Source: an uncultured virus (IMG/VR IMGVR_UViG_3300028173_000008) (taxonomy: Duplodnaviria > Heunggongvirae > Uroviricota > Caudoviricetes). From it: 64,000 nucleotides of DNA. Positions 2,338 through 39,901 of the stretch are shown piece after piece. The DNA lies in IMG/VR virus record IMGVR_UViG_3300028173_000008. The stretch is one strand, 5' to 3'. Position 1 is the stretch's first letter; each line of letters begins with the position of its first letter. A program made the position numbers and the translations under genes. The notes below the pieces were generated by a model. That model searched no databases, was not told the origin of the DNA, and was given only the letters and a program-made list of their open reading frames with translations.

Positions 2338-2410
2338 ACATTATTCCGGCGAAGCTCATCTGGTAGAGCGGGCGGTTGACAACCGAAGGGTCTTGCCTTA
2401 CTTTGAGGGC

Positions 2411-2821
2411 ATGAACAAGAGCCCTAAAACTATCGGCGAGCGCAGTGAAGGCATGGTGCTGGCAGCCCTCTTGAGGGCGGGCAAGGTTGTGTTGCAACCC
2501 TTCGGGGACAACCAACGGTACGACCTTGTGGTGGATGAGGATGGGAAATTCATCCGGGTCCAGTGCAAGACCGCCCGCTTGAAGAACGGCGCTTTGGCCT
2601 TCGATACATGCTCCTCTCAAACCCATCGGGGGAAGGGGAAGCAAGATTACAGGGGGCAAGCGGACTTGTTTGGGGTCTATTCTCCTGACAGGGACGCCGT
2701 GTACCTTGTACCCGTTGAGGATGTCGGGGTTACCCAAGCCCGACTCAGGCTGTCCAAACCTCGTAATGGCCAATCCAAAGGCGTCCGCTTTGCGGCGGAT
2801 TATCTTCTCGATCTGGGGTAG
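2411..2821 (+). CDS. PD-(D/E)XK endonuclease (I-Ssp6803I/PDDEXK_5-like)
   Basis: GERSE..V...L..PFGDNQRYDLVVD..RVQCKT..Y..ADLFGVY. Confidence 0.85.
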   Translation: MNKSPKTIGERSEGMVLAALLRAGKVVLQPFGDNQRYDLVVDEDGKFIRVQCKTARLKNGALAFDTCSSQTHRGKGKQDYRGQADLFGVYSPDRDAVYLVPVEDVGVTQARLRLSKPRNGQSKGVRFAADYLLDLG

Positions 2822-2884
2822 CTCAATAGGTAGAGCGCCGGTCTGTTAAATCGGTTGTTGAGGGTTCAAGTCCCTCCCCCAGAG
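2812..2884 (+). tRNA. tRNA-Asn(GTT), cassette cargo
   Basis: cloverleaf; ORF stop TAG = positions 8-10. Confidence 0.9.
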
Positions 2885-2931
2885 CTACAAGCTCCTCATG
2901 TTGTGGGTTCGAGTCCCACCGCCGGAGCTTG

Positions 2932-3431
2932 AAGGGCTGGCTGTTCCCTTTCGGGGGTTCAGTCTGTGACGGGCCGTATGGGGTCCGTAGGAAACATCGG
3001 AGCAATCCGGTGGAAGGGGAGTCCTTGTCACAGGCCCCCGCCAGTCACCTCTCGGGGTGGTTGGTCCGTCCATGCAAGCCGTAGGTAGCCCGGTCAGGGC
3101 GGGTCGTCCACCAAAGGCGGCTCTAGTCCCGAGTCTGGGGTTGGCCCCACCGACAGGTGGGTGAAGCATGGCCTGTCAGCGATGGCAGTCATGCGAAGGA
3201 TAGGCGGGGACGCCTTGAGCCAACCAATCCAACTGGACGAAGGAGGATTCCCAAGCGGCAGTCGGTCAGTTTGAGGGGTGGGAGCCCTGAAGGCGGTCGG
3301 CATGTAGAGGGGCGAAGGGTGAAATCCCCGGAGTCCTGAAGACAGGGTAAAGCCCGCCGGGGCGAATACCAGAGGACGTGTTGCATTCCCCTCCTCAAAA
3401 GGGAAGGGAACGACTGGCAGGGCACGCCCTT
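2932..3431 (+). ncRNA. large (~500 nt) structured non-coding RNA
   Basis: no credible ORF; AAGGGC/GCCCTT ends pair; UUCG/GNRA-type hairpins; flanked by tRNAs. Confidence 0.55.
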
Positions 3432-3437
3432 ATGACA

Positions 3438-3510
3438 TGCGAATTAGCTCAGTTGGTAGAGCGCATCCTTCGTAGGGATGAGGTCGTTGGTTCAAGTCCA
3501 ACCCTTGCAA
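3438..3510 (+). tRNA. tRNA-Thr(CGT), imperfect acceptor stem
   Basis: good D, anticodon and T arms; 2 acceptor mismatches. Confidence 0.6.
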
Positions 3511-3845
3511 ACAAAGGAAAGACCCTGCCGGTCTGTGTGGTAAGTGACCTAATCCCGTCCCCGCAAGGGAAGGCGGGCCGGTGAAGCCCCCAAGGTGGAG
3601 CCGGTTGGTGGGAAGCTGAAGCGTAGGGGCGGCCACCCCTGCCGGATGTGGAAAGCCGATGCAGCACAGGCGACGAGGGAAACGCCACCCTCCAACAAAG
3701 GCGGTCACGACTGGCTACCGGGGAGACCCGGTGGACACGGGGAGAACTTGGCGGGGGACCGTCAAGGTAATGCCCTGAGAGGCCGGTTATGAAAACGGGT
3801 AGTCTCACCGTTCCTCATTCTCCCCTCCCTTCGGGGCGGGGACTA
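3511..3845 (+). ncRNA. ~330 nt structured non-coding RNA
   Basis: CCCC-GCAA-GGGG, CCGGG-gaga-CCCGG, CCC-TTCG-GGG hairpins; between tRNAs. Confidence 0.45.
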
Positions 3846-3846
3846 T

Positions 3847-3923
3847 CGGAGAGTAGCGCAGCCTGGTAGCGCACCTGGTTCGGGACCAGGGGGTCGGGGG
3901 TTCGAATCCCCCCTCTCCGACCA
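3847..3923 (+). tRNA. tRNA-Pro(CGG)
   Basis: cloverleaf, CCA. Confidence 0.92.
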
Positions 3924-3955
3924 CGACAGAGACAGCCCGGAGAGACGGGCACCAT

Positions 3956-4029
3956 CGGGATGTGGCGCAGTCTGGCAGCGCACTTGGCTGGGGGCCAAGG
4001 GGCCGTCGGTTCGAATCCGACCATCCCGA
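3956..4029 (+). tRNA. tRNA-Pro(GGG)
   Basis: cloverleaf. Confidence 0.9.
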
Positions 4030-4037
4030 CTTTCAAT

Positions 4038-4108
4038 CCTGACCTAGCTCAATGGCAGAGCGCTCGGCTGTGGACCGGGAGATTCGGGTTCAACTCCCGG
4101 GGTTAGGA
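4038..4108 (+). tRNA. tRNA with GTG anticodon (atypical His, U-1:A73)
   Basis: cloverleaf CCTGACC/GGTTAGG. Confidence 0.7.
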
Positions 4109-4190
4109 CGGACAAGGGCTATGGGGTAGAGGCCGAAGTTGGACGAGGCACATTAGACTGGCTATACTCTCCTCATTAGTAGGAGGTAGC

Positions 4191-4811
4191 ATGTACAAGG
4201 AAGCCACGAAGCAAGAGGCCCTCCGCCTTCGCCAACAGCAGCGCCTTTCCCTTCGAGAGATCCAAGCCCAAACAGGGGTCTCTAAAGGAACCCTCTCCAA
4301 GTGGTTGCAGGGGATGCCGTTAGACAGGGAAGAGGTGCGGGCAAAACTCCGCCTCAATGGAACCAGCAAGGGACGAGCAAAAGCTGACCGGGTTGAATCT
4401 GCCTTACACCGCCGTTTCGGTGTTCCCATGAACAGCCACTACAAGGCTAAGATTGCAGAAGCAGCGATCCTTCTTCGGGCTGGCTTGTTGGGGGTGGATA
4501 CCTACCAGAGCCCCTTTGATGGAGACAAGGCCGACTGGGTGTTTGATGTGAAGGGACGCCTCCTTAAGGTGCAGGTGAAATGGGCGGCCACACCAGCCAA
4601 ACATGGGGCACCACAAGTGAAAGTACGATGTGCCGGGGGCCGTTCTGGACTCCGGTGCTACACGGAGGGGGAATTCGACATTCTTGTAGGATATGACCTT
4701 TACACCGACACTGCCTATGTGTGGACGTGGGATGAGGTGAAGGATTTCACCAGCACTGTTTCCTGTTGGGATGAAGCAGAGGAACGCTGGGACAAGATCA
4801 CGGTCTCATAG
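4191..4811 (+). CDS. HTH + PD-(D/E)XK endonuclease
   Basis: LSLREIQAQTGVSKGTLSKWL HTH; IAEAA..PFDGDKADW..KVQVK..Y.EGEFD. Confidence 0.85.
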   Translation: MYKEATKQEALRLRQQQRLSLREIQAQTGVSKGTLSKWLQGMPLDREEVRAKLRLNGTSKGRAKADRVESALHRRFGVPMNSHYKAKIAEAAILLRAGLLGVDTYQSPFDGDKADWVFDVKGRLLKVQVKWAATPAKHGAPQVKVRCAGGRSGLRCYTEGEFDILVGYDLYTDTAYVWTWDEVKDFTSTVSCWDEAEERWDKITVS

Positions 4812-4879
4812 GGGAGTCAGGAGTCCCCACCTGCCTGTCACGCAGGAGATCCCGGGTTCAAATCCCGGTGGGACCGCCA
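4802..4879 (+). tRNA. tRNA-Asp(GTC), cassette cargo
   Basis: cloverleaf, CCA; ORF stop TAG = positions 8-10. Confidence 0.9.
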
Positions 4880-5050
4880 GAGGAAGCGGGTTCGAGTCCC
4901 GTCTATCCCGCCAATCGCCGGGGGTGAAACCCGGAGGAACACAGTGGAAGCAGCAGGCTCCCCCTCGGGGGAGGCCGTGCAAGCGTAACTCCTGCCGTGG
5001 AAGCTGTGGAAAACCGGGCGAATCCCCACTTGGGACCTTGTGGACACGCA

Positions 5051-5138
5051 GGCTGGGTAGCTCCAATCGGCAGAGCGCTGGGCAACGCTTGCACGGCTTT
5101 GGGCCCAGAGGTAGGGGGTTCGAGTCCTTCCCTGGGTA
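5051..5138 (+). pseudogene. tRNA-like RNA with ~19-21 nt anticodon loop
   Basis: D and T arms intact, CTGGGC/GCCCAG stem, weak acceptor. Confidence 0.55.
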
Positions 5139-5179
5139 CACAAGAAGCGGGATGTCCAAGTTCCAACGGCGATTTTCAT

Positions 5180-5252
5180 GGGGGTGAGGTCTGCTGGGCG
5201 GACGCTGGCTTGTCAGGTCAGAACGGGGAGGGTTCGATTCCCTTCACTCCCG
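5180..5252 (+). tRNA. tRNA-Asp(GTC)
   Basis: cloverleaf. Confidence 0.75.
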
Positions 5253-5256
5253 CTTT

Positions 5257-5329
5257 GGGTCCGTAGTGTTAATGTAGCATCCCTGGCTCTTAACCAGGCG
5301 GGTGGCGGGTTCAAGTCCCCCCGGACTCA
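5257..5329 (+). tRNA. tRNA-Lys(CTT)
   Basis: cloverleaf, atypical D loop. Confidence 0.7.
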
Positions 5330-5344
5330 CTGAAGTGTTTTCAT

Positions 5345-5417
5345 CCCTCCGTGGCGCAATTGGTAGCGCAAACGGCTCTTAACCGTGAGGTTGAAGGTTC
5401 GATTCCTTCCGGGGGGA
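5345..5417 (+). tRNA. tRNA-Lys(CTT)
   Basis: cloverleaf. Confidence 0.88.
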
Positions 5418-5435
5418 CTAGCGTTTGTACTTTGT

Positions 5436-5512
5436 GACCCCGTCGTCTAGTTGGCTAGGACACCAGACTCTCAATCTGGAGATCGCCGGTTCAAACCCGG
5501 TCGGGGTTACCA
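5436..5512 (+). tRNA. tRNA-Glu(CTC)
   Basis: cloverleaf, CCA. Confidence 0.9.
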
Positions 5513-5513
5513 T

Positions 5514-5587
5514 CCTCCCGTAGCTCAGTAGGTAGAGCGGCGGCCCGATAAGCCGTGACAGCGAAGGTTCAATTCCTTTCGGGAGGA
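5514..5587 (+). tRNA. tRNA-Ile(GAT)
   Basis: cloverleaf (C33). Confidence 0.85.
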
Positions 5588-5614
5588 CTAGCAGAGGACT
5601 GTGGTGCTGGTTCA

Positions 5615-5687
5615 GCATAGATAGCTCAATTGGTTGAGCATCGGTCATTCAAACCGACGGTTACAGGTTCGATCCCTGTTCGTTTGC
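5615..5687 (+). pseudogene. degenerate tRNA (TTC loop)
   Basis: D, anticodon and T arms present; acceptor poorly paired; A33. Confidence 0.5.
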
Positions 5688-5721
5688 AACAGCCCGACAC
5701 CCGACCTTCCTCTGCTTCCCT

Positions 5722-5841
5722 CGAACAGTAGCTCAGTGTTGATGTACCCCCGCCAAGTTGCCGGTTGATGAAGCGGAAGGGCATCGATAGGGAGAGCGCC
5801 GGGACACTCGGAGGCCGCTGGTTCAAACCCAGCCTGTTCGA
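5722..5841 (+). ncRNA. tRNA-like RNA with ~53-nt D-loop hairpin insert and no anticodon loop
   Basis: CGAACAG/CTGTTCG acceptor, GCTC/GAGC D stem, CCGGG-ACA-CTCGG, GCTGG-TTCAAAC-CCAGC. Confidence 0.75.
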
Positions 5842-5845
5842 CTTT

Positions 5846-5917
5846 GCGGGCGTAGCTCAGTGGTAGAGCATCGGGTTGCCAATCCGAAGGTCGTGGGTTC
5901 GAATCCCATCGCCCGCT
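5846..5917 (+). tRNA. tRNA-Gly(GCC)
   Basis: cloverleaf. Confidence 0.92.
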
Positions 5918-5921
5918 CTAT

Positions 5922-5995
5922 GGTGTGGTCTTCTAATTGGCTAGGAAATCGGCCTTTCAAGCCGGGGAATGCGGGTTCGAATCCCGTCCACACTA
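5922..5995 (+). tRNA. tRNA-Glu(TTC)
   Basis: cloverleaf. Confidence 0.9.
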
Positions 5996-6168
5996 CAAGA
6001 AGTCCGGTAGCCACCGGACGCGGCCGGAGACACCCCCGGTCGTCAGTCAGGTTGGCATCTGACGAACAGGGTAGCCGATCCCCGGTAATGGGGCGTCGTC
6101 AGGGAGGCGAAAGTAGGGCAACCGAAGGACGGTCTGAAATACATCGTCCGGGTCTTACCCCTGATCAT

Positions 6169-6244
6169 GGGGCCTTAGCTCACTTGGGAGAGCGTCGGGA
6201 TGGCATTCCGAAGGTAGCGGGTTCGATCCCCGCAGGCTCCACCA
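6169..6244 (+). tRNA. tRNA-Ala(GGC)
   Basis: cloverleaf, G3:U70, CCA. Confidence 0.92.
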
Positions 6245-6273
6245 GGGCTTAGTTGCAGATCTATCTGCGTTGA

Positions 6274-6347
6274 TGGGGCGTCGTCCAAAGGCAGGACCCT
6301 GGGTTTTGGTCCCAGTGATGAGGGTTCGAATCCTTCCGCCTCAGCCA
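6274..6347 (+). tRNA. tRNA-Gln(TTG)
   Basis: cloverleaf, CCA. Confidence 0.9.
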
Positions 6348-6361
6348 TTCAAGGAGGTGTC

Positions 6362-7162
6362 ATGAGCAAGATAGTAAAAGGCACCTCCCGGAGCGGTGTA
6401 GGAACTACGTTGGTGGTTCCGCAGCACCGGCTGGTGTTCGACATGGGGGCTCCCCTGGTGGAGTCCTTGGGCGTCCGTAAGGTGTTCATCACCCACGGGC
6501 ACATGGATCACGCAGGGGCTCTGGTGTTCCACGCCAGCACACGGGGAATGATGGGAATGGGGCCGCCCCTGTTCCACGTCCCGGCCTGGATGGAAGCCGA
6601 CCTTCGGGTGATACTGAAGGCCGCCGCCCGCCTCAACGGTGGGGGAGTCCAGTTCGACATGGTCCCCATGGAAGCGGGCAAGAGTCACGATCTGGGAGGG
6701 CCTCGCAGAGTGGTGCCCTTCTACACCGACCACCGGCTACCGTGCCTCGGCTACAAGGTCTACCAGACCCGAAACAAGCTCCGGGATGAGTTCATAGGAC
6801 TTCCCGGAGAGGAGATCGGGCGGCTTCGGAAGGGTGGAACGGAAGTCACCCGTGAGGTAGAAGCCTTGGCACACACGCACGTAGGGGACAGCCGGGTGAC
6901 CGTGCTGGACAAACACCCCGAGGTGTTCCAGTCAGATGTGCTGGTGCTGGAGTGTACGTTCGTGGGCGACTACTCCTTGGAGGAGACCCACAGGCGGGGA
7001 CACACGCACCTGTCCGAACTGGCGGAACGTGCGGAACTGTTCAAGGACGTGAAGGCCGTTGTCCTGACACACTTCTCGATGCGACACAGCGAGAAGGAGG
7101 TCAAGGCGGAGGTCGCCAAGCTCCCCGAGTCCCTTCGGGACAAGATCCACCTCGTTTTCTAG
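6362..7162 (+). CDS. rnz: ribonuclease Z (MBL fold)
   Basis: FITHGHMDH, GDS, LECTF, RGHTH, LTHFSMRH, short exosite. Confidence 0.85.
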   Translation: MSKIVKGTSRSGVGTTLVVPQHRLVFDMGAPLVESLGVRKVFITHGHMDHAGALVFHASTRGMMGMGPPLFHVPAWMEADLRVILKAAARLNGGGVQFDMVPMEAGKSHDLGGPRRVVPFYTDHRLPCLGYKVYQTRNKLRDEFIGLPGEEIGRLRKGGTEVTREVEALAHTHVGDSRVTVLDKHPEVFQSDVLVLECTFVGDYSLEETHRRGHTHLSELAERAELFKDVKAVVLTHFSMRHSEKEVKAEVAKLPESLRDKIHLVF

Positions 7163-7246
7163 CCCCCTCTCGGGGGCATCATTGGGGCATAGCTCAATTG
7201 GTAGAGTACCGTTGAACTTTGTGCGCTTTACCCTTACACTAGAAGC

Positions 7247-7828
7247 ATGGGACGAAAGAGCCACATCTGGGACACACCCCCGGAACGCTTCCGCCAACTG
7301 GTACACACCCACACCACATGGAAAGGGCTCGCATTAGCCCTTGGGATGTCGATCTGTGGGGGGACATTCAAGACCATCCGTAAAAGGATCCAGCAAGATG
7401 GGTTGGACGATCATCATTTGCGAGAGGGGGCCTCAAAACGAGGTGGCCTTTTGGCCGCTAAGAAACAGGAGCAGCCCCTTTCAGAGATCATGGTGAAAGA
7501 TTCTTCCTACTCACGGTACCACCTAAAGGCCCGTCTACTGCGAGACAGGGTGTTGGAAAACAAGTGTGCCATGTGCGGTCTCGATCCTGTTTGGGAAGGA
7601 GATCCCCTCGTGATGGTTCTTGACCACATAAACGGGGAACCCCAAGACCACCGGGCAGGGAATCTGAGGTTGGTCTGCCCCAACTGCAACTCACAGCTTC
7701 CAACCTTTGCAGGTCGGAAAACGAAAAAGGGCGAGGTTCTTTGTGTGGACTGCGGGACACCCATCCACACAAGAAGTACCAGATGTCGTTCATGTAGCGG
7801 CAGGCATCGTTATTTTACTGGGGAGTAA
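7247..7828 (+). CDS. HNH endonuclease
   Basis: CAMCG..LDHING..D.R..NLRLVCPNCNSQ. Confidence 0.9.
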   Translation: MGRKSHIWDTPPERFRQLVHTHTTWKGLALALGMSICGGTFKTIRKRIQQDGLDDHHLREGASKRGGLLAAKKQEQPLSEIMVKDSSYSRYHLKARLLRDRVLENKCAMCGLDPVWEGDPLVMVLDHINGEPQDHRAGNLRLVCPNCNSQLPTFAGRKTKKGEVLCVDCGTPIHTRSTRCRSCSGRHRYFTGE

Positions 7829-7891
7829 CTCAACTGGCAGAGTGCCGTCCTCTGAAGGCGGATGTTGTGGGTTCGAGTCCCACCTCCCCAG
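7819..7891 (+). tRNA. tRNA-Gln(CTG), cassette cargo
   Basis: cloverleaf; ORF stop TAA = positions 8-10. Confidence 0.9.
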
Positions 7892-7962
7892 CCCATAGGT
7901 TGAAGGTTCAAGTCCTTCTGCCCCAGCTATGGCGGGACGCACAGGCAGTGCAGGCCGTCTAA

Positions 7963-8035
7963 CGCAGTGTAGCTCAACAGGTAGAGCGCTGGTCTCATAA
8001 GCCGGAGGTTCCCGGTTCAATTCCGGGCACTGCGA
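7963..8035 (+). tRNA. tRNA-Met(CAT)
   Basis: cloverleaf. Confidence 0.85.
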
Positions 8036-8050
8036 CTACAGCGGTACTAG

Positions 8051-8124
8051 GGCGACGTAGCCAAGTTGGTTAAAGCACTGGTCTGCAAAACCAGAGATCC
8101 CCGGTTCGAATCCGGGCGTCGCCT
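8051..8124 (+). tRNA. tRNA-Cys(GCA)
   Basis: cloverleaf, U73. Confidence 0.9.
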
Positions 8125-8197
8125 CTTTTCGGACGGTAGCTCAGTGGTAGAGCTTCGGTAGCTCTCCTATCAGGAGTCTCATGGTAGGAGGTGGGCT

Positions 8198-8545
8198 GTG
8201 ACAACCATCGTGAAATGTGAGCAGTGCGGCAGGGAGTACGTCCCGGACAGGAAAAAGGGACACCGTGGAACCCTTTGCAACTCTTGTGTGGTCAACACCA
8301 GGAGAGCAAGCGTAAAGGAAAAGGCAGTCTCCTACAAAGGAGGGGCGTGCGCCATCTGCGGTTACGACCGGTGTGCGAGAGCCTTGGGGTTCCACCATAA
8401 GGACCCTGCCAAGAAGGATTTTCCTCTTGGGGCCAACTACACGAGGTCGTGGGACAAACTGAAGGTGGAGTTGGATAAGTGCATCCTCCTCTGCGCCAAC
8501 TGTCACGCTGAAGTTCATGATGGGATGGTTGAACTCGGGGGGTAG
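8198..8545 (+). CDS. HNH endonuclease
   Basis: YKGGACAICGY..ALGFHHKDP..ELDKCILLCANCHAEVH. Confidence 0.9.
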   Translation: MTTIVKCEQCGREYVPDRKKGHRGTLCNSCVVNTRRASVKEKAVSYKGGACAICGYDRCARALGFHHKDPAKKDFPLGANYTRSWDKLKVELDKCILLCANCHAEVHDGMVELGG

Positions 8546-8608
8546 CTCAGTGGCTAGAGCGAACGGCTGATAACCGTTAGGGCGAGGGTTCGAGTCCCTC
8601 TCTCCCGA
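8536..8608 (+). tRNA. tRNA-Ile(GAT), cassette cargo
   Basis: cloverleaf; ORF stop TAG = positions 8-10. Confidence 0.9.
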
Positions 8609-8752
8609 CTTTTACTACCGTGGGGCCGGAGGTTCGAATCCTCCTCGTCCGACCAGTAGGGAAAGGTGGCGGTCTGAGAGCCTGCCGGGTTCTGCAAGGC
8701 CCAATGGTTCAACGTCTGTTGCAGCAGGCCCCGTGCGCCGCCCTGCGTTCAT

Positions 8753-8822: not shown

Positions 8823-8881
8823 CTAGTTTGTCTATGGGCAGGGGATGGTAGAGTGGATCGACTCCACGAGGAGATACCGTC

Positions 8882-10054
8882 ATGGGCTACAACGTCCCCG
8901 AACCTTACGCCTCGCTCCTTGCCACGTACCCCGACGTAGCGAACGTCAAGTACGTGTCCCCACCGGATGCTAACCATCTGGAGGGAACGGGGGACGGCTC
9001 ATTGGTCAACCCGTACAGGGGCATCCAGACGGCCATCGATGCTTTTCCGCCCACAGAGATGCCTCCGCCTGACCCGGCGGACATGGGCCCAGAGGATCTG
9101 GTCAACCTGTTCCGGTTCATCGTCGTCAATTCGGGTGTGTACGACGAGAGCCCCATTATCACAGAGGCAGGGCTCTGGTCCTTTCAATCAGCAGGGCAGG
9201 TCCTGCTGATCTCCCCTGTGGCTTTCGCTTACCTGTGGGATCCTGAGCACGAGCCGCCCCCGTCCATTGACGACATGCGGTTCTTCCACCTGAACCCGGA
9301 TGAAACCAAGCTTGACGCTTGGGGCATGTTCATCTTGGACATTCAGCCCCTCTACGGTGCCCCGAAAGACAAGATGATCGGCGGCATCGGCAGGAACGGC
9401 AGCACCGGGGGTCTGCAGATGTGGACCCTTATGGGCGGGATCGTCTACGAGGTGGAAGCACCCCTCGGTGGCTGGACGCACACCCCGTCGCCGTCCATTA
9501 GCTTGAAAGATGTCTACGGCCTGGTACTCGTCCCTGGAGAGAACGGGGATTGGGAAGCCGACATCAACATCGACTGTGACCGAGTCTCGTTCAACTACTT
9601 CGAAGTCCTGGGGCTGGAGAAGTACGACGTCGAGATCCTCAACTCCGCCTTCAGTGGCCTTGAGCAGTACTCTGGACCTGGTGCCCCTATCTACACGCAG
9701 ACCTGCCGGTTCTGGGCCAGCAACTGCAACATCACGGGCGACGTGTTCGTGGCAGACGCCGACATCGTGTTCGACCACGTTTCCATGAGCGGTGGAGACC
9801 TGATTTTCAGGACCTACTGGTCCATCCTGGACTGCAACCTGGACGTCAACGAGTGGGAACACACACAGTCCCCGTCGGGATCGGTCATCATCAACACCTA
9901 CTTCGACGTGAACTCGTGGGGTGCGGCCCTTCCCCTGAACGCCCTGAACGTCTGCGCCACCACCTGTGCGATGAGCAGTTCGGCCCTGTCCAGCTTGCCC
10001 GTCCCACATAGCAACTACGCATCAGTCACGAACAGCGTCGTGATCCCCCCGTAA
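8882..10054 (+). CDS. acidic hypothetical protein (possibly beta-helix/virion)
   Basis: 390-aa ORF with GGAG RBS; GDGSLVNPY..IQ.AIDA motif. Confidence 0.7.
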   Translation: MGYNVPEPYASLLATYPDVANVKYVSPPDANHLEGTGDGSLVNPYRGIQTAIDAFPPTEMPPPDPADMGPEDLVNLFRFIVVNSGVYDESPIITEAGLWSFQSAGQVLLISPVAFAYLWDPEHEPPPSIDDMRFFHLNPDETKLDAWGMFILDIQPLYGAPKDKMIGGIGRNGSTGGLQMWTLMGGIVYEVEAPLGGWTHTPSPSISLKDVYGLVLVPGENGDWEADINIDCDRVSFNYFEVLGLEKYDVEILNSAFSGLEQYSGPGAPIYTQTCRFWASNCNITGDVFVADADIVFDHVSMSGGDLIFRTYWSILDCNLDVNEWEHTQSPSGSVIINTYFDVNSWGAALPLNALNVCATTCAMSSSALSSLPVPHSNYASVTNSVVIPP

Positions 10055-10057
10055 CCT

Positions 10058-10130
10058 GCCCCAGTAGCTCAGTGGATAGAGCATCGGTCTCCTAAACCGA
10101 GGGCCGCAGGTTCGATTCCTGCTTGGGGCA
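10058..10130 (+). tRNA. tRNA-Arg(CCT)
   Basis: cloverleaf. Confidence 0.92.
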
Positions 10131-10164
10131 CTCCCTTCAACAGCACCGCAACAAGGAGAACACC

Positions 10165-10218
10165 ATGGTACTTCGTCTCAAACAGCCGCCGACCCCCATT
10201 CGTTTACTGGGCCGGTAG
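10165..10218 (+). CDS. 17-aa mini-ORF MVLRLKQPPTPIRLLGR ending inside tRNA-Lys
   Basis: AAGGAG RBS; TAG = tRNA positions 8-10. Confidence 0.45.
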   Translation: MVLRLKQPPTPIRLLGR

Positions 10219-10284
10219 CTCAACTGGATAGTCAGCAAGCGGCTTTTAACCGCTAGGTTCCGGGTTCAAGTCCCGGTCGGCCCA
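10209..10284 (+). tRNA. tRNA-Lys(TTT)
   Basis: cloverleaf. Confidence 0.88.
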
Positions 10285-10289
10285 CTATT

Positions 10290-10363
10290 GCGGACGTAGC
10301 CAAGAGGTAAGGCATCGGGCTTCCACCCCGTGAGCGCCGGTTCGATTCCGGTCGTCCGCTCCA
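10290..10363 (+). tRNA. tRNA-Gly(TCC)
   Basis: cloverleaf, CCA. Confidence 0.9.
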
Positions 10364-10404
10364 CCAACAGGGCTTAGGTAGTTCCTCTATTGCGTAGACA
10401 CCCA

Positions 10405-10772
10405 TGGGTAGGATGTCAGCCTCGGTGAAGCTGGGTACGCAGTGGAGGGGCACAAAACGACGCCTGCACCGCCCGTGAGATAGGCCCAAACGGGGAACCG
10501 TCAACCGGGGAGGGGGTGGAAGTCCTCTTGACCCGCCCGGAAGGGTCCTGCGTTGAGCCGTCATCTTGAGGGCGGCCTTGAAGGGCAGCGTAGGTACACC
10601 CCCTGAAGGACGCCCTTTGGCTGGTGCTTGGACTGGCCCCTGTGGATGAGGGTTTGTATCAACCAAGCTGGAAGCGGAGTACTCGTCCCCATTGTTGAAT
10701 CCCACCTTCGGGTGCGGTACTGGACGAGCCGGAAGTACCCCATGGCACGGCGTACTTCCGGCTGTGGGCGTG
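10405..10772 (+). ncRNA. ~370 nt structured non-coding RNA
   Basis: directly after a GGCTTAG promoter; 12-bp AGCCGGAAGTAC/GTACTTCCGGCT helix; no credible ORF. Confidence 0.5.
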
Positions 10773-10773
10773 A

Positions 10774-10845
10774 GGGCGTATAACTCAGCGGAAGAGTGCC
10801 GTCTTGACAAGGCGGAAGTCCCTGGTTCAATCCCAGGTACGCCCA
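10774..10845 (+). tRNA. tRNA-Val(GAC)
   Basis: cloverleaf. Confidence 0.9.
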
Positions 10846-10862
10846 CTGAATCGGAGGGCTAG

Positions 10863-11048
10863 GTGACGAACAAGGACAAGTGGTTCGCAACCTGTATGGT
10901 GTTGATGCTTGTGACAGGCTTCGGTCTTGTGGGGCTTGGCCTCGACTCAACGCTGGCATCGATCTTTGAGGTGGCCGCAGCCGCCATCTGGCTCTTTGGA
11001 GTTCCGAAAGTCAGCCGTAGAGCACACCAGTACATCTACGGCAGGTAG
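10863..11048 (+). CDS. small membrane protein
   Basis: GGAGG RBS, two hydrophobic segments. Confidence 0.6.
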   Translation: MTNKDKWFATCMVLMLVTGFGLVGLGLDSTLASIFEVAAAAIWLFGVPKVSRRAHQYIYGR

Positions 11049-11054
11049 TTTTGG

Positions 11055-11126
11055 CGCGGGGTAGGGAAGTGGCATCCTCCTTGGCTCATAACCAAGGGAT
11101 CGGCGGTTCAAGTCCGCCCCCCGCAA
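11055..11126 (+). tRNA. tRNA-fMet(CAT)
   Basis: CGCGGGG start, C1:A72 mismatch. Confidence 0.8.
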
Positions 11127-11273
11127 CCTCTCGGGCAATCTGACTCGGCCCGTAAGCCCGCCCCACGTCCCCGTCAGGGTGACGAGCACCCGAAAGGGTA
11201 GGGCAACAGGAGCAGACCGTGGGAAGACGCTTTGTACAGCGTCGGAATGCGTCCCGGAGGGACGCCCCACCGT

Positions 11274-11345
11274 GCGGGTGTAGTTCAGGGGTAGAACGTC
11301 AGCTTCCCAAGCTGGATGTCGTGGGTTCGAATCCCATCACCCGCT
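11274..11345 (+). tRNA. tRNA-Gly(CCC)
   Basis: cloverleaf. Confidence 0.92.
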
Positions 11346-11349
11346 CTAT

Positions 11350-11422
11350 GGGGCCTTAGCTCACTTGGGAGAGCGCCGCTTTTGCAAGGCGGAGGTAGCC
11401 GGTTCGATCCCGGCAGGCTCCA
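11350..11422 (+). tRNA. tRNA-Ala(TGC)
   Basis: cloverleaf, G3:U70. Confidence 0.92.
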
Positions 11423-11425
11423 CTA

Positions 11426-11480
11426 TGGGGAGGGCGGGGTGGTCAGGCCCGAAAGGGAGCAGCCATCCTGACCCTACCCA
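11426..11480 (+). ncRNA. ffs: minimal SRP (4.5S) RNA, helix 8 domain
   Basis: GGTCAGGCCC-GAAA-GGGAGCAGCC matches helix-8 GGUCAGGUCCGGAAGGAAGCAGCC; closed by TGGG..CCCA. Confidence 0.85.
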
Positions 11481-11534
11481 CCAGGCTTAGCCTCCCGTTC
11501 ACCTGTGTTGAAGAGGTGGACGACGGAGGACGAC

Positions 11535-11981
11535 ATGAGCGTTACATTTTGGTGCCCCGAAGCTCCCCGAGAGGCCATCGAGACCCCTTGCTGGGGCGAG
11601 TGCGACGAAACCTGCCCCATGTGTCACGGCACCAACGTGACCACGGAACAGGTCAGCCCGCACGAGATGAACCTCGCCAACGCCAACGCCTACAACATCC
11701 TCCTCGCCTTGGGTGTCCAGAGTGACGAATCCATGTGCGGCGGGTGGGAGACCCCCGAGGACATCCGCACCATCAGGGCGGCGATCCTCAAGGCCCGCAA
11801 CGTGACAGGCCGCAGGGAAGGGGCACACCGAGACGCCGAATCCTACGGCGGGCCGGGAACTGGAACCTGCCGGGTCGTTTCGCAGGGCTACACCGACGAG
11901 CAGGTACTCGACCGGCTGACCCGGTTGGACAAGCTCCTCGCCTACGCTTTGGAGAACAGTCACCGGGTGGTTTGGGGATGA
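11535..11981 (+). CDS. hypothetical protein (Zn ribbon)
   Basis: GGAGG RBS, CxxC motifs. Confidence 0.7.
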   Translation: MSVTFWCPEAPREAIETPCWGECDETCPMCHGTNVTTEQVSPHEMNLANANAYNILLALGVQSDESMCGGWETPEDIRTIRAAILKARNVTGRREGAHRDAESYGGPGTGTCRVVSQGYTDEQVLDRLTRLDKLLAYALENSHRVVWG

Positions 11982-12556
11982 GTGCTCACCGTGAGCGTGT
12001 GAAAATGCTCAAGCGGGTCAACGCCCACCAGCAAGTCAACGACCCCTTCTGGTTGTCCGGCTACACCGACGGAAGCCACCATCCCGACACAGGGAAGGGC
12101 GGCGTGGGCCTGTGGGTACGGGACAACGAGACCCGAATCCTCAAGGCTATACCGACCCCTCCGTGGGCTGTGAACTCCAACCTCGTGGAACTGTTCGGGG
12201 TCTGCGCCGCCATTGAGACGGCCCTGACGGAACTCACACAGGAAGCCAACATCCTCGTCATCAAGACGGACAGCCAGAGCACGGCCAACTGGTTCGGCTG
12301 GCAGGGCAACAAGTCCGTACCGAAGCAGCCTGAAGCCCTCGAGATGATGCAGCACGTCCTAGAGCTTGCCACCGACCGCCGAGTGAAGGTGGTCGTCAAG
12401 TGGGTGAAGGGACACCAAGGCACGGGCAGCGTCGTGGGCTACTTGAACAACCGGGTCGACAAGATGGCCCGTGATGCACGACTGAAAGGTGTACCCTCTC
12501 GCTGGTCCTGCCGGGTCAACGAGGAACGCAAGCAAGGGCCTGTAGCTCAACGGTAG
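11978..12556 (+). CDS. rnhA: ribonuclease HI
   Basis: YTDGS, NSNLVEL, KTDSQ, KWVKGH, NNRVDKMA. Confidence 0.85.
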   Translation: MSAHRERVKMLKRVNAHQQVNDPFWLSGYTDGSHHPDTGKGGVGLWVRDNETRILKAIPTPPWAVNSNLVELFGVCAAIETALTELTQEANILVIKTDSQSTANWFGWQGNKSVPKQPEALEMMQHVLELATDRRVKVVVKWVKGHQGTGSVVGYLNNRVDKMARDARLKGVPSRWSCRVNEERKQGPVAQR

Positions 12557-12608
12557 AGCCTCCCGCTCATAACGGGACGGTCGACGGGTTCGACTCCCTC
12601 CGGGCCCA
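12536..12608 (+). tRNA. tRNA(CAT), probably Ile2
   Basis: GGGCCTG acceptor typical of Ile2; overlaps rnhA end. Confidence 0.75.
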
Positions 12609-12658
12609 CTAGCCCCTAAACAGCAAGCAGCAGGGTAGGATAAGGCAGGAGGTGCCTC

Positions 12659-12898
12659 ATGCCGGATCTACCCTACGTGATGCTCACTGGACTCATCCTC
12701 ATGCTGGTCGGTGTTCCCCTCTGGATGTACCGCTCAGAGAAGAAGAAGGTGGAGGCCGGGTGTTGCGGGAAGCCGTGGATCTCCTACTGCCGTGACTCAC
12801 AGGGCGGCATCGGCTTGAACTGTCAGGAGTGCGACAACGGCACTTGGGTATCCTACTACCGCAAGGGCTTCGTTGAGGGCGAACAGCAACCATTCTAG
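12659..12898 (+). CDS. small membrane-anchored protein
   Basis: GGAGG RBS, N-terminal TM. Confidence 0.6.
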   Translation: MPDLPYVMLTGLILMLVGVPLWMYRSEKKKVEAGCCGKPWISYCRDSQGGIGLNCQECDNGTWVSYYRKGFVEGEQQPF

Positions 12899-12968
12899 GC
12901 TCGTAGCTCAGTGGGAGAGCGCCTGCTTCACACGCAGGAAGTCCCCGGTTCAAAACCGGGCGGGCCTA
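12897..12968 (+). tRNA. tRNA-Val(CAC)
   Basis: cloverleaf. Confidence 0.9.
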
Positions 12969-12986
12969 CTTTGAAGGAGGGCTAAC

Positions 12987-13514
12987 ATGGAAAGCACACG
13001 CAGAGGGTTCCTTGCAGGAGCCGCTGGAGTCACAGGTTGGCTCCTGTTCGGCAAGGGTGCCGAAGCCGCAGCGAAGGCCGAGGGCAACCGTGTCCTGCGG
13101 GAGTTCGATGAGGACGTTGAGGGGTTTCCGCATCACGTCATCGAGATGCAGTTGACCTACGACAACCCGATGCTCCAGTTCGACGTGCCACTGCCGGACT
13201 CGGACTTCGATGGCCTACAGATCAGCATCCCAAGGCGTCAGACGGTGGGCCGCCACACGGCGACGGAGCTTGTGGACTACCACAAGCGGAGCCAACCCGA
13301 CGGTGACATCTGGGGGATCATCCGCCAGCGTGTACCCCAGATGGCACAGGCGAGGGTGAAGAATCCCGCCTACGGCGACCACAAGATGCACATCGCCACG
13401 GTGGTGTGCCACTGCCCGAGCGGGATCGAGGTGGGCATGACGGTGTTGCCCGTAGGCGTGACCGTCGAGGACATGCACCTGACCATCCCGGCAACGCTGT
13501 TGCCGCAGTCCTGA
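12987..13514 (+). CDS. hypothetical protein with Tat-like signal
   Basis: STRRGFLAG. Confidence 0.7.
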   Translation: MESTRRGFLAGAAGVTGWLLFGKGAEAAAKAEGNRVLREFDEDVEGFPHHVIEMQLTYDNPMLQFDVPLPDSDFDGLQISIPRRQTVGRHTATELVDYHKRSQPDGDIWGIIRQRVPQMAQARVKNPAYGDHKMHIATVVCHCPSGIEVGMTVLPVGVTVEDMHLTIPATLLPQS

Positions 13515-13532
13515 CAACGCACAAGGCTCCAA

Positions 13533-13608
13533 GGGCGAGTAGCGCAGTGGAAGTAGCACCGGCTTTACAAGCCGTAGGTCGTGGGTTCAATCCCCACCTC
13601 GCCCACCA
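13533..13608 (+). tRNA. tRNA-Val(TAC)
   Basis: cloverleaf, CCA. Confidence 0.85.
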
Positions 13609-13647
13609 TTCAGGCTTAGCCGGACGCCCGTCCGTGTAGAGAACCTC

Positions 13648-13953
13648 ATGAAGCAGGAAACCCAAGAGTGCCCCCTGTGCCACCGTGACTGCCCACAGGC
13701 GATCATGACGGAGCACCACTTGAAGACCCGCAGGGTGGACAAGGACGACACGGCGATGCTGTGCCGGGAGTGCCACAAGACGGTACACGGGCTCTTTGAC
13801 AACAAGGAACTACGGGACTCGTCCAGAGGGCTGGACACGGTCGAGGGGCTGCTTGCAGACCCCTTGATCCGAAAGGCCCTCTCCCACATCAGGAAGCTCC
13901 CGCCCGGTCAGTTCATGCGGATGTATCGGGCCGGACGCCGCAAGAAGCGCTAG
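13648..13953 (+). CDS. small HNH-like protein
   Basis: CPLCHR..TEHHL..LCRECHKTVH. Confidence 0.75.
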   Translation: MKQETQECPLCHRDCPQAIMTEHHLKTRRVDKDDTAMLCRECHKTVHGLFDNKELRDSSRGLDTVEGLLADPLIRKALSHIRKLPPGQFMRMYRAGRRKKR

Positions 13954-13969
13954 ACACCAATCCAAACAT

Positions 13970-14043
13970 GCCCCGGTAGCTCAGTGGATTAGAGCACACC
14001 CCTGCGGAGGGTGGGGTCGGAGGTTCGAATCCTCTCCGGGGTA
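13970..14043 (+). tRNA. tRNA-Arg(GCG)
   Basis: cloverleaf. Confidence 0.88.
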
Positions 14044-14103
14044 CTTGTGCGCCCGTAGCTTTATGGTTTCTCCTCCGGTATTATCCGGGCAACAGGAGGA
14101 ACC

Positions 14104-14616
14104 ATGCCAACCTGCAAGAAATGTGGTGTCTCATTCCCCAACAGGATAACGGTTGAGGGGGGCAGGCGAAACATCTCCAGACGGAAATTCTGCCTGACAT
14201 GTTCCCCTTGGGGGTCTCGAAACCGAAAAGACCTGAGTGCCCCCTCGATTACCAGCGGAGTGAAAACCTGCCCTCGGTGTGGGGACGTGAAGGAACTCAC
14301 TGAGTTCTACACCAGACGGAGAGGTAAGGAGTCCGAGCCTTCCTCCTACTGTAAGGCATGCGCCGCAGAGGAAGCACGGGGACGTATGCGGGCATTGAAA
14401 GCCCGTTGCGTTGAGTACAAGGGAGGCGGGTGCCGGGTTTGTGGGTACTCGAAAAGCCTCGCTGCGTTGGATTTCCATCACAGGGATCCCAAGGAGAAAG
14501 GTTACGGGATTTCGCAGATCCGAGGTTGGAAATTCGAACGGGTAAAGGAAGAATTAGATAAATGTGACCTTCTGTGTCGGAATTGCCACTCAGAGGTTCA
14601 TGACGAGGCCCTGTAA
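14104..14616 (+). CDS. HNH endonuclease
   Basis: YKGGGCRVCGY..ALDFHHRDP..ELDKCDLLCRNCHSEVH. Confidence 0.9.
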   Translation: MPTCKKCGVSFPNRITVEGGRRNISRRKFCLTCSPWGSRNRKDLSAPSITSGVKTCPRCGDVKELTEFYTRRRGKESEPSSYCKACAAEEARGRMRALKARCVEYKGGGCRVCGYSKSLAALDFHHRDPKEKGYGISQIRGWKFERVKEELDKCDLLCRNCHSEVHDEAL

Positions 14617-14679
14617 CCCAGTGGATAGGGTGCCTGACTTCGAATCAGGTTGTCGCAGGTTCGAGTCCTGCCAGGGCCA
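14607..14679 (+). tRNA. tRNA-Arg(TCG), cassette cargo
   Basis: cloverleaf; ORF stop TAA = positions 8-10. Confidence 0.9.
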
Positions 14680-14716
14680 TCAGGTTGGGAGTTCGAATCT
14701 CCCCGGGCGTTCTTTT

Positions 14717-39897: not shown

Positions 39898-39901
39898 AAA
39901 G

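Follow-up and report, generated by a model that had tools for sequence, protein, structure and literature searches.

In archaeal split and intron-containing tRNAs, the two halves lie apart in the DNA and pair through the acceptor stem, and a dedicated endonuclease and ligase join them at a bulge-helix-bulge motif into a working tRNA. The other systems closest to the present one involve endonuclease genes. SegB of phages T4 and T6 is a free-standing GIY-YIG homing endonuclease of the tRNA gene cluster, whose features include the cutting of tRNA genes, co-inheritance with neighbouring tRNA genes and tRNA-plus-nuclease rearrangements (PMC2330249, PMC13096335). I-Ssp6803I is a PD-(D/E)XK homing endonuclease of a 655-nt group I intron in Synechocystis tRNA-fMet (PMC1995217, PMC3384342), the founding member of this family being a tRNA-gene homing enzyme (PMC1995217). 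In 'fractured genes', a free-standing homing endonuclease gene splits a protein gene and split inteins rejoin the halves (PMC2677866). Among the protein genes found in the tRNA arrays of mycobacteriophages and in cyanobacterial L-arrays, those of HNH type are the most frequent, and a role in moving tRNA genes is ascribed to them (PMC5966550, PMC8421152); adjacent HNH genes have been implicated in the diversity of the tRNA repertoire (Pope et al. 2014, J Virol 88:2461, cited in PMC5966550).

The tRNA gene cluster considered here belongs to a large marine phage (Caudoviricetes; IMG/VR IMGVR_UViG_3300028173_000008), analysed as a 64,000-nt window of a 106,830-bp contig. It holds six nuclease genes, each within a broken tRNA gene (the resident) and alongside a whole spare tRNA gene (the cargo). 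As in archaeal split tRNAs, the resident halves are separated and their acceptor strands pair, but in four of the six residents the anticodon arm is partly or wholly missing, with 10–30 nt or more lost, and the host is bacterial, since the contig carries a tmRNA. Like SegB, these are selfish nuclease genes without an intron inside a phage tRNA array; SegB, however, is intergenic and of a different nuclease family, and the available text mentions no split resident around a nuclease and a spare tRNA (PMC2330249, PMC13096335). I-Ssp6803I shares its protein family with ORF1 and ORF2 (PF11645, PDB 2OST), which likewise lie inside tRNA genes, close to the anticodon arm; one relative (L094) adjoins a group I intron match. 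The present loci, however, have no ribozyme, a whole tRNA gene occupies the place of the intron core and the interrupted tRNA is mostly not restorable. As with 'fractured genes', a nuclease gene breaks a host gene without any cis-splicing element and something else makes up for the cost; there the product is mended by protein trans-splicing, whereas here the gene appears to have been given up, with a carried copy in its place. The HNH genes of mycobacteriophages and L-arrays share the tRNA-array setting, and no nested layout is described in the available text (PMC5966550, PMC8421152). A search of the literature found no published description of a nuclease and a spare tRNA nested in a split tRNA.

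Layout of the six loci

The order of elements is the same at all six loci, namely a 5′ tRNA piece, a nuclease ORF, a complete tRNA and a 3′ tRNA piece (Table 1), and the original prediction of six such instances was confirmed, coordinates included.

Table 1. Features of the six nested loci, in window coordinates (5′ and 3′ pieces are those of the resident).
Feature	Position	Strand	Content or evidence
1, 5′ piece	2345..2378	+	acceptor strand, D arm, anticodon-stem 5′ strand, first loop bases TTG
1, ORF1, 136 aa, I-Ssp6803I-like PD-(D/E)XK	2411..2821	+	PF11645 E 7e-37; PDB 2OST E 1e-7; phrog_5018
1, complete cargo tRNA-Asn(GTT)	2812..2885	+	ARAGORN; Rfam 70.6 bits; contig's sole Asn gene
1, 3′ piece	2898..2927	+	variable loop, T arm, acceptor strand, G73
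2, 5′ piece	4123..4150	+	acceptor strand, unusual long D region
2, ORF2, 206 aa, N-terminal helix-turn-helix and PD-(D/E)XK	4191..4811	+	PF11645 E 1.5e-11; HTH_23 E 3e-6; phrog_5018
2, complete cargo tRNA-Asp(GTC), CCA encoded	4802..4879	+	ARAGORN; Rfam 58.9 bits
2, 3′ piece	4886..4913	+	T arm, acceptor strand, G73, CCA
3, 5′ piece	7183..7213	+	tRNA positions 1-31
3, ORF3, 193 aa, HNH	7247..7828	+	phrog_10822 E 4e-40; weak Pfam HNH_3; 34% identity to ORF6
3, complete cargo tRNA-Gln(CTG)	7818..7895	+	ARAGORN; Rfam 62.7 bits; contig's sole CTG gene
3, 3′ piece	7897..7926	+	variable loop, T arm, acceptor strand, G73
4, 5′ piece	8130..8159	+	runs through anticodon-stem 5′ strand
4, ORF4, 115 aa, HNH	8198..8545	+	phrog_2255 E 1e-28; no Pfam match; 40% identity to ORF5
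4, complete cargo tRNA-Ile(GAT)	8536..8609	+	ARAGORN; Rfam 68.4 bits
4, 3′ piece	8610..8655	+	anticodon loop, 3′ stem strand, T arm, acceptor strand, A73, CCA
5, short 5′ piece	14049..14061	+	acceptor strand, positions 8-9, D-stem start
5, hairpin pairing ORF5 ribosome-binding site and start codon	14062..14109	+	-24 kcal/mol, z -4.5, equalled by 0/200 shuffles
5, ORF5, 170 aa, HNH	14104..14616	+	phrog_2255 E 2e-51; weak Pfam HNH
5, complete cargo tRNA-Arg(TCG)	14607..14679	+	ARAGORN; Rfam 73 bits; contig's sole TCG gene
5, 3′ piece	14682..14711	+	variable loop, T arm, acceptor strand; pair 1-72 is G-U
6, 5′ piece of resident tRNA-Leu	41462..41491	-	positions 1-30
6, ORF6, 166 aa, HNH	40929..41429	-	phrog_10822 E 5e-48
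6, complete cargo tRNA-Leu(TAG)	40854..40934	-	ARAGORN; Rfam 53.7 bits; contig's sole TAG gene
6, 3′ piece	40804..40853	-	whole anticodon loop (TAG), 3′ stem strand, long variable arm, T arm, acceptor strand, A73

The separated acceptor strands had been predicted to pair as TCCGGCG/CGCCGGA (2345/2920), GGGGTAG/CTATCCC (4123/4903), TGGGGCA/TGCCCCA (7183/7919), CGGACGG/TCGTCCG (8130/8645), GCGCCCG/CGGGCGT (14049/14704) and GCGACCG/CGGTCGC (41491/40805, minus strand), and they do so in a position-specific way: all six outer acceptor stems are intact, with 41 Watson-Crick pairs and one G-U among 42. Acceptor pairing by itself is weak evidence, as 31–83% of shuffled 3′ strands (618/1989 to 1645/1985) find a 7/7 partner when G-U is allowed and the partner may lie anywhere within the upstream 900 nt, and it is this abundance of 7-nt complements that speaks for a chance resemblance or an assembly chimera. 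The position-specific test is strong: in a 6x6 matrix of 5′ against 3′ pieces, 7/7 pairing occurs on the diagonal only (off-diagonal values 1–6), and permutations of each 3′ strand that kept its composition paired fully with their own 5′ strand in 1/140, 5/105, 1/210, 4/210, 3/105 and 1/140 cases. The paired strands are also bordered by canonical arms, with a T arm (5-bp stem, TTCRANY loop) preceding the 3′ acceptor strand at all six loci and positions 8-9 and a D arm following the 5′ acceptor strand at five, the instance 5 piece ending after about 13 nt. Contigs from an independent run span the junctions of instances 1 and 5 (X17 records 1, 2, 7 and 8), and five further public contig stretches of the same phage, each covering part of the array (L047, L084, L085, L086 and L087), are collinear with the window at 99.86–100% identity and with at most one 1-nt gap each. 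The layout is no assembly artefact, and the probability of a chimera or a chance resemblance is close to nil.

Nucleases, residents and spare tRNAs

All six ORFs encode nucleases, two of them I-Ssp6803I-like PD-(D/E)XK and four HNH, in three lineages of two; matches to Pfam, PDB and PHROG profiles bear out the claim that both types use the layout. By coordinates, ORF and tRNA together take up all but 32–46 nt of each insert. Searches for intron and self-cleaving ribozyme families gave no match, whether across the whole window at gathering score (Rfam) or across 2000–15000 at E<=5, and the earlier view that no group I intron core fits is upheld. A seventh nuclease ORF, of GIY-YIG type, stands free between tRNAs of the same array (41572–42207, minus strand).

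Removal of the insert yields a full cloverleaf at two of the six loci: with long introns allowed, ARAGORN reads instance 4 (Ile cargo) as a cloverleaf at 8130–8655 with a 450-nt insert and instance 6 (Leu) as one at 40803–41491 with a 608-nt insert. The model it builds for instance 3 lacks credibility. In instances 3, 4 and 6 the 5′ junction comes after tRNA position 30-31, and inserts stop at the cargo 3′ end or at most 12 nt beyond it, with no gap between cargo and 3′ piece in instances 4 and 6 and one of 2 nt in instance 5; across all six, breakpoints vary. The losses from the other four residents reflect either imprecise events or decay of the pieces, and they make splicing unlikely. The residents might nonetheless still be made if RNase P and a 3′ endonuclease freed the inner tRNA and a phage RtcB joined the outer pieces held by their acceptor stem, which would amount to protein-dependent tRNA splicing or a split tRNA. 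The intact outer stems, the retention of every cloverleaf part in instances 4 and 6 and the 3′ pieces that abut or nearly abut the cargo would suit such a pathway, as would an RtcB encoded by the contig (289 bits; window 26104–27372, minus strand) and a metallo-beta-lactamase-fold ORF within the array (6362–7162). RtcB, however, is not known to join the ends left by RNase P and RNase Z, no ribozyme family that could make RtcB-type ends was matched in the searches above, the instance 4 loop is non-canonical in the ARAGORN register, and no tRNA is possible from the four residents that lack the anticodon loop or the whole arm; we regard this pathway as highly improbable.

Residents had also been predicted to share the isotype of their cargo, which is established for Leu(TAG) alone. 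Both anticodons in that case are TAG, as claimed; another phage contig (L051) has an intact tRNA-Leu(TAG) that carries the resident anticodon arm in one piece, and the resident acceptor stem is that of the phage's own tRNA-Leu(GAG) (39901–39988), whereas the cargo acceptor stem differs. A shared isotype is plausible for Asn and Gln, U1-A72 and G73 in instances 1 and 3 being compatible with both, and doubtful for Asp and Ile: the 5′ piece of instance 2 has a D region of long-arm type, unlike the Asp cargo, and the instance 4 resident reads TTT or TTA in its anticodon loop against GAT in the cargo. Cargo and resident anticodon arms differ at 5–6 of 17 positions by eye, and the outer and cargo tRNAs are too dissimilar to be duplicates of each other. 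Four spare tRNAs, for Asn, Gln(CTG), Arg(TCG) and Leu(TAG), carry anticodons that are single-copy in the contig.

Relatives and the origin of the nesting

For two nuclease lineages, relatives in unrelated phage contigs adjoin the same tRNA type on either side. Among ORF1 relatives, a tRNA-Asn begins within about 25 nt past the ORF in eight of 18 viral loci and ends just upstream in a further two, and it lies upstream in 3/18 loci of cellular genomes; among the 12 near-full-length ORF6 relatives (exact copies excluded), a tRNA with a TAG anticodon follows the ORF in four and precedes it in three. ORF2 relatives (two loci) adjoin Gly and Val tRNAs, not Asp, and most ORF5 relatives have no tRNA linkage. 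The full nested layout recurs in one other contig, L010, from another phage, where ARAGORN reads a Lys(TTT) resident around an Asn cargo and removal of the insert again gives a full cloverleaf; L011 is nested with an extra ORF. Many relatives place the same nuclease beside an intact cognate tRNA, upstream or downstream, without pieces, so that nesting is not obligatory and the nuclease with its downstream tRNA is not always the unit, which would count against a strict cassette. Uninterrupted alleles, the check proposed with the original prediction, were found for none of the six instances: every other copy of the phage examined is collinear, and no joint removing an insert occurs among the contigs compared.

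These un-nested relatives would fit a rival view in which the six genes are ordinary SegB-like free-standing homing endonucleases, each beside an immune cognate tRNA and cutting tRNA genes, and the nesting is a chance scar left by break repair between tRNA genes that are paralogous or foreign; on this view the pieces would be dead debris rather than homology arms, and nuclease and tRNA no defined mobile unit. The varying breakpoints, the loss of sequence from four residents and the free-standing GIY-YIG-type ORF agree with this, as do reports that SegB cuts within tRNA genes and drives tRNA-plus-segB rearrangement via microhomology (PMC13096335, PMC2330249). In the array itself, the tRNA at 43723–43807 (minus strand) and tRNA-Leu(CAA) at 42341–42425 have an exact 56-nt 3′ part in common from position 30, which reads as a gene-conversion footprint at the anticodon stem. 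Accidents, however, are not expected to yield the same four-part order six times in three lineages and again in L010 and L011. Also against a scar are the residents exactly restored by insert removal (two here, one in L010), the inserts that end at or close to the cargo 3′ end and the outer and cargo tRNAs too unlike to be mutual duplicates. We consider a scar origin less likely than the cassette reading set out below.

We favour, at a probability of about 0.58, the reading that the six loci are ribozyme-less, intron-like homing cassettes that bring a replacement tRNA and do not splice. The element order and pairing at all six loci with a nuclease in each, and the simple-insertion footprint of instances 4 and 6 and L010, argue for it; so do the few residual nucleotides and lack of ribozyme matches in the inserts, the Leu(TAG) resident, the single-copy cargo anticodons, the conserved nuclease-tRNA link, the recurrence of nesting in L010 and L011 and the tRNA-gene homing enzyme that founded the PD-(D/E)XK family. 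Against it stand the missing empty allele, the four imprecise or decayed residents, an isotype identity limited to Leu, the un-nested relatives, the ORF2 and ORF5 relatives with other tRNA neighbours or mostly none, and the generality of ORF-tRNA overlap in this array. The homing-element interpretation first proposed holds in its layout, nuclease types, lack of a group I intron and Leu TAG anticodons, and only in part for the isotype match.

Under the cassette reading, each locus would have arisen when a site-specific nuclease gene, fused to a complete tRNA gene, was copied into a tRNA gene of the phage itself, in the part that encodes the anticodon arm. When a related phage with an intact, sensitive allele infects the same cell, the nuclease would cut that allele close to the anticodon-loop DNA, and repair would copy nuclease and tRNA from the cassette-bearing genome, with homology provided by both resident pieces and by the array around them. 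The broken resident would stay unrestored, while the spare tRNA, presumably escaping cutting because its anticodon arm differs, would keep the phage tRNA set complete. Such a layout looks like a route for nuclease genes to invade without a self-splicing RNA.

Cassette expression is probably kept low. The stop codon coincides with positions 8-10 of the spare tRNA in five of the six cassettes, as for ORF1 and tRNA-Asn(GTT), so that 5′ maturation of the tRNA would give a stop-less message, and the hairpin at ORF5, at least, may act as a brake by locking the ribosome-binding site. Overlap of an ORF with the tRNA after it is a general feature of the array, seen also in the QueF-like ORF at 42589–43080.

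Layout of the six interrupted tRNA genes

All six loci (instances 1 to 6) have the layout claimed in the original prediction: a 5′ piece of a resident tRNA gene, a nuclease ORF (ORF1 to ORF6, respectively), a complete cargo tRNA (Asn, Asp, Gln, Ile, Arg and Leu, in that order) and a 3′ piece of the resident gene. In every 3′ piece, a canonical T arm leads into a 7-nt acceptor strand with its discriminator base, and five of the six 5′ pieces extend through the D arm, that of instance 5 ending after approximately 13 nt. A 7-nt complement is found somewhere upstream for 31–83% of shuffled strands, so that such matches are not rare in this DNA. When the strands directly preceding the D arms are combined with the 3′ pieces, pairing at all seven positions is seen only within a locus, pieces of different loci reaching 1–6 of 7, and only 1/140 to 5/105 composition-preserving permutations pair equally well. 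The resident pieces are undetectable by the Rfam E-value search because it does not report partial tRNA matches, and a loose nested-halves script, which over-calls in G+C-rich DNA, served solely as a listing.

The complete cloverleaf is rebuilt by ARAGORN, with long introns allowed, in instances 4 and 6, whose inserts measure 450 and 608 nt, respectively, while instances 1, 2, 3 and 5 lack some or all of the anticodon arm. The 5′ junction falls after position 30–31 in instances 3, 4 and 6, at about 31–34 in instance 1 and within the D arm in instance 5. At the other end, the 3′ piece directly abuts the cargo in instances 4 and 6 and is separated from it by 1–2 nt in instances 3 and 5 and by 6–12 nt in instances 1 and 2. 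The simplest account is that a nuclease-plus-tRNA block was inserted at the anticodon arm of a resident tRNA gene, because the four-part order occurs six times and the resident is exactly restored in two loci here and one elsewhere. Such an insertion is similar to intron homing, except that no ribozyme is involved.

The two pieces could instead be rejoined at the RNA level. This is unlikely because four residents lack the anticodon arm in part or whole, although the contig does encode an RtcB RNA ligase; members of the RNA ligase family PF09414 were sought and not found. Unlike archaeal spliced or split tRNA genes, the pieces hold a complete tRNA in only two of the six cases, instances 4 and 6. 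No insert-removing joint was present among the joints listed (15 of 19, from contigs of two DNA and two RNA runs); those listed have sides of 18–25 nt and look like cross-matches, at 90% likeness, among tRNAs from other organisms. RNA-library contigs cover 7116–7372, 7262–7399 and 8210–8452 at a low depth that could reflect DNA carry-over, and therefore say nothing firm about transcription or splicing.

Elsewhere in the window, a tRNA-like gene with an enlarged D loop may be a decayed interrupted tRNA, and other tRNA-like genes are recognized by Rfam only (table).

Nucleases, inserts and cargo tRNAs

The claim that PD-(D/E)XK and HNH enzymes both use this layout holds. ORF1 and ORF2 match PF11645 (E 7e-37 and 1.5e-11), ORF1 also matching PDB 2OST (E 1e-7), and the other four ORFs are HNH nucleases. 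ORF3 (E 4e-40) and ORF6 (E 5e-48), which share 34% identity, match phrog_10822, an HNH family, and ORF4 (E 1e-28) and ORF5 (E 2e-51), which share 40% identity, match phrog_2255. Three nuclease lineages are thus each represented twice, with different tRNAs, and with six cassettes of three enzyme lineages in a single genome, the window is a good test bed.

The inserts are 450–735 nt long and contain the nuclease ORF and tRNA only, with 32–46 nt beyond these. As anticipated, they hold no group I intron: Intron_gpI gave no match at E≤5 or at the gathering score, and no other intron or self-cleaving ribozyme family matched the inserts, the same library having matched a group I intron beside an ORF1 relative in a cellular genome (L094). 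The characterized member of PF11645, I-Ssp6803I, is described (PMC1995217) as residing in a group I intron, 655 nt long, that interrupts a tRNA-fMet gene. ORF1 and ORF2 have the same PD-(D/E)XK fold; unlike that type, in which the ORF sits within a splicing group I ribozyme, the present inserts have no ribozyme around the ORF. They also differ from integrase-borne islands, which leave a repeat of the tRNA 3′ end at their far border: no integrase is present, and the displaced 5′ and 3′ pieces are not repeats of the cargo. The available portions of the literature on SegB, HNH genes in tRNA arrays, I-Ssp6803I and ‘fractured genes’ (e.g. PMC8421152, PMC3384342, PMC3943268, PMC1995217, PMC13096335, PMC5966550) contain no description of a nuclease and spare tRNA within a split tRNA gene.

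The stop codon of the nuclease ORF coincides with cargo tRNA positions 8–10 in five of the six cassettes and with positions 4–6 in the remaining one. This compactness is general to the array, since a QueF-like ORF overlaps tRNA-Phe in the same way. The phage also encodes a tmRNA, a noteworthy feature given that the nuclease messages would lose their stop codon when the cargo tRNAs mature; nuclease expression may be controlled through such stop-less messages. The ribosome-binding site and start codon of ORF5 lie within a strong hairpin (z −4.5), and the corresponding hairpins of ORF2 (z −1.5) and ORF4 (z −1.1) are not significant. A promoter of the cassette's own at the 5′ junctions, suggested by eye from −35/−10-like hexamers with an ATG 6 nt further on, was rejected: a consensus scan returned three sites against 2.7 expected, just one of them at a junction, that of instance 2.

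The cargo tRNAs score 53.7–73 bits against the Rfam tRNA model. For Asn(GTT), Gln(CTG), Arg(TCG) and Leu(TAG), the contig has no other gene with the anticodon; Asp(GTC) and Ile(GAT) are each encoded twice. The expectation that resident and cargo share an isotype was borne out for Leu, where both anticodons are TAG, and is doubtful for instance 4, whose resident loop reads TTA (ARAGORN) or TTT (other register), not GAT. The 3′ piece of instance 6 has a canonical loop with its anticodon and a long variable arm, and an intact tRNA-Leu(TAG) of another phage (L051) carries the D-arm end and anticodon arm of this resident without interruption. Its outer acceptor stem is that of the phage's own tRNA-Leu(GAG), the cargo having a different one, and by eye, as in all these outer-versus-cargo comparisons, 5–6 of 17 anticodon-arm positions differ between cargo and resident. 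Resident and cargo have U1–A72 and G73 in common in instances 1 and 3, and in the latter also the D arm and 5′ stem strand. The resident and Ile cargo of instance 4 are both C1–G72/A73, as are the phage's Pro, Lys and Met genes. The 5′ piece of instance 2 has a D region of the long-arm type, and that of instance 5 is too short for an isotype call.

Relatives, empty sites and the origin of the cassettes

The association of nuclease with tRNA is conserved in other genomes. ORF1 has 18 relatives in viral contigs (38–66% identity); a tRNA-Asn starts no more than about 25 nt downstream in eight and ends just upstream in two, and Gly or Ile(TAT) lies downstream in three. The full nested form, whose recurrence in other genomes was to be checked, is found in L010, a viral locus with a 502-nt insert of nuclease plus tRNA-Asn, where ARAGORN rebuilds an outer tRNA with an Asn-like acceptor end and a loop that reads Lys(TTT). 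L011 is also nested and has an additional small ORF, L001 has the 5′ piece only, and L013 and L018 have the nuclease between tRNA pieces without cargo. In cellular genomes, ORF1 relatives occur at 18 loci, with tRNA-Asn upstream in three and others near Ala, Val or Pro tRNAs. One of them, in a Mesorhizobium chromosome (L091), lies between the 5′ and 3′ pieces of an initiator-like tRNA with C1 opposite A72 and a CCA end; this locus has no spare tRNA and no ribozyme match.

ORF6 was matched at 28 loci, including 12 near-full-length relatives besides exact copies; a TAG-anticodon tRNA lies downstream in four of the 12 and upstream in three. ARAGORN found no nesting in the three loci L021, L022 and L024. 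The TAG tRNAs beside the ORF6 relatives of L021, L024, L026 and L042 are 74–76 nt long and, unlike bacterial tRNA-Leu, have no long variable arm. The two relatives of ORF2 adjoin Gly(GCC) and Val(GAC); at L052, a Gly(GCC) with a degenerate T loop lies upstream of the nuclease and a canonical Gly(GCC) downstream. Relatives of ORF5 are mostly without a tRNA link, and ORF3 has none in viral contigs.

The window corresponds to positions 30126–94125 of a 106,830-bp virus record (G+C 0.62; CheckV completeness 20%), which was found in marine and seawater metagenome runs from 17 studies, 18 DNA runs among them, and has no near relative in the named-phage collection. An independent run yielded contigs with the same arrangement across the junctions of instances 1 and 5, and five further contig stretches from this phage, each overlapping part of the array, also show it. 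All fetched copies of the phage are collinear with the window, and the 100% identical IMG/VR copies show zero differences across the overlap. The metallo-beta-lactamase-fold protein of the array has no relatives in viral contigs, and in metagenome contigs only at four loci, each 100% identical in protein and collinear with the window at 99.86–99.99% DNA identity. The uninterrupted alleles to be sought in related phages were not found among the phage copies fetched, at the contig joints listed or by exact-pattern searches, the latter giving no match for uninterrupted instance 4 in viral contigs or for instance 6 in metagenome contigs; empty alleles at low frequency would be visible only in raw reads. 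A shorter pattern had L051 as its sole match, which was rejected as an empty site, being an intact tRNA-Leu(TAG) in an unrelated phage and not syntenic.

The main rival explanation is that the loci are scars left by free-standing nucleases such as SegB. In its favour are the existence of un-nested relatives, the imprecise breakpoints and a gene-conversion footprint in another tRNA-Leu: from position 30 onwards, two tRNA-Leu genes have an identical 56-nt 3′ part, and their first 29 nt differ, a pattern suggestive of gene conversion initiated by a break in the anticodon stem. Like SegB-type enzymes, the six ORFs have no enclosing self-splicing intron or intein, and a seventh nuclease ORF lies between genes, as in that type; the six themselves each lie between the pieces of one tRNA gene. 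Under block insertion, the nuclease would cut intact alleles, the tRNA pieces would provide homology, and the carried tRNA, immune to cutting, would take on the resident's job. We give roughly even odds to the broader proposal that such ‘break-and-replace’ cassettes are a third route by which homing endonucleases persist in essential-type genes, breaking a tRNA gene and carrying a cleavage-immune replacement, and that, used independently by PD-(D/E)XK and HNH enzymes, they promote the turnover and horizontal spread of tRNA genes widely among large phages.

Homing endonuclease genes are not known to survive within genes unless the product is freed of them by an intron or intein; in these cassettes, the carried spare gene would bear that cost instead, with no splicing. 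If true, this would account for the fact that, among the protein genes of phage tRNA arrays, those for nucleases are the most common, for the gain, loss and exchange of tRNA genes in such arrays and for the tRNA fragments strewn through them, and would provide a set of natural nucleases specific for tRNA genes, together with the resistant targets that match them.

Other features of the arrays

The two arrays comprise 51 tRNA genes and the tmRNA, with one further tRNA elsewhere in the contig. The metallo-beta-lactamase-fold protein encoded there is possibly a tRNA 3′ processing enzyme.

Coordinates of features in the window and of ORF1 relatives in other genomes
Feature	Coordinates	Strand	Observation
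GOLLD RNA	3371–3811		Rfam 154.4 bits (gathering score 150)
tRNA-Thr(CGT)	3438–3510		Enclosed by the GOLLD RNA
Promoter-consensus site	4140–4168		At the instance 2 junction
tRNA-like gene	5051–5138	+	Rfam only, 27.7 bits; extra nt in anticodon region
tRNA-like gene	5615–5688	+	Rfam only, 46.9 bits; A at expected U33
tRNA-like gene	5724–5841	+	Paired acceptor stem, D-stem halves and T arm; about 50 extra nt in D loop; no normal anticodon arm, no internal ORF
Metallo-beta-lactamase-fold protein gene	6362–7162		Inside array
Small SRP RNA-like match (bacterial)	11412–11499	+	Below threshold: 33.6 bits (gathering score 40), E 6e-4; directly 3′ of tRNA-Ala(TGC)
RNase H-like protein gene	11735–12556		Inside array
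RtcB RNA ligase gene	26104–27372	−	PF01139, 289 bits; open frame of 475 aa; same contig as arrays
tmRNA	37299–37664	−	Tag ANETLPMQAAA
Seventh nuclease ORF	41572–42207	−	211 aa; PHROG homing endonuclease families, including GIY-YIG; free-standing among tRNAs, between tRNA-Leu(CAA) and instance 6
tRNA-Leu	42341–42425	−	Shares 56-nt 3′ part with next tRNA-Leu
QueF/GTP-cyclohydrolase-like gene	42589–43080	−	tRNA-Phe gene on each side
tRNA-Leu	43723–43807	−	Shares 56-nt 3′ part with preceding tRNA-Leu
ORF1 relative, L091	1150–1620		57% identical
ORF1 relative, L093	862–1155		Directly 3′ of permuted alpha-proteobacterial tmRNA gene
ORF1 relative, L094	1645–1903		Directly 5′ of group I intron match, 67 bits

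Contigs from two metatranscriptome runs span 2953–3797 and 2972–3812 at depths of 26 and 23, respectively, and, because they extend further than the Rfam match, the GOLLD RNA may exceed that match, probably covering about 2950–3812.
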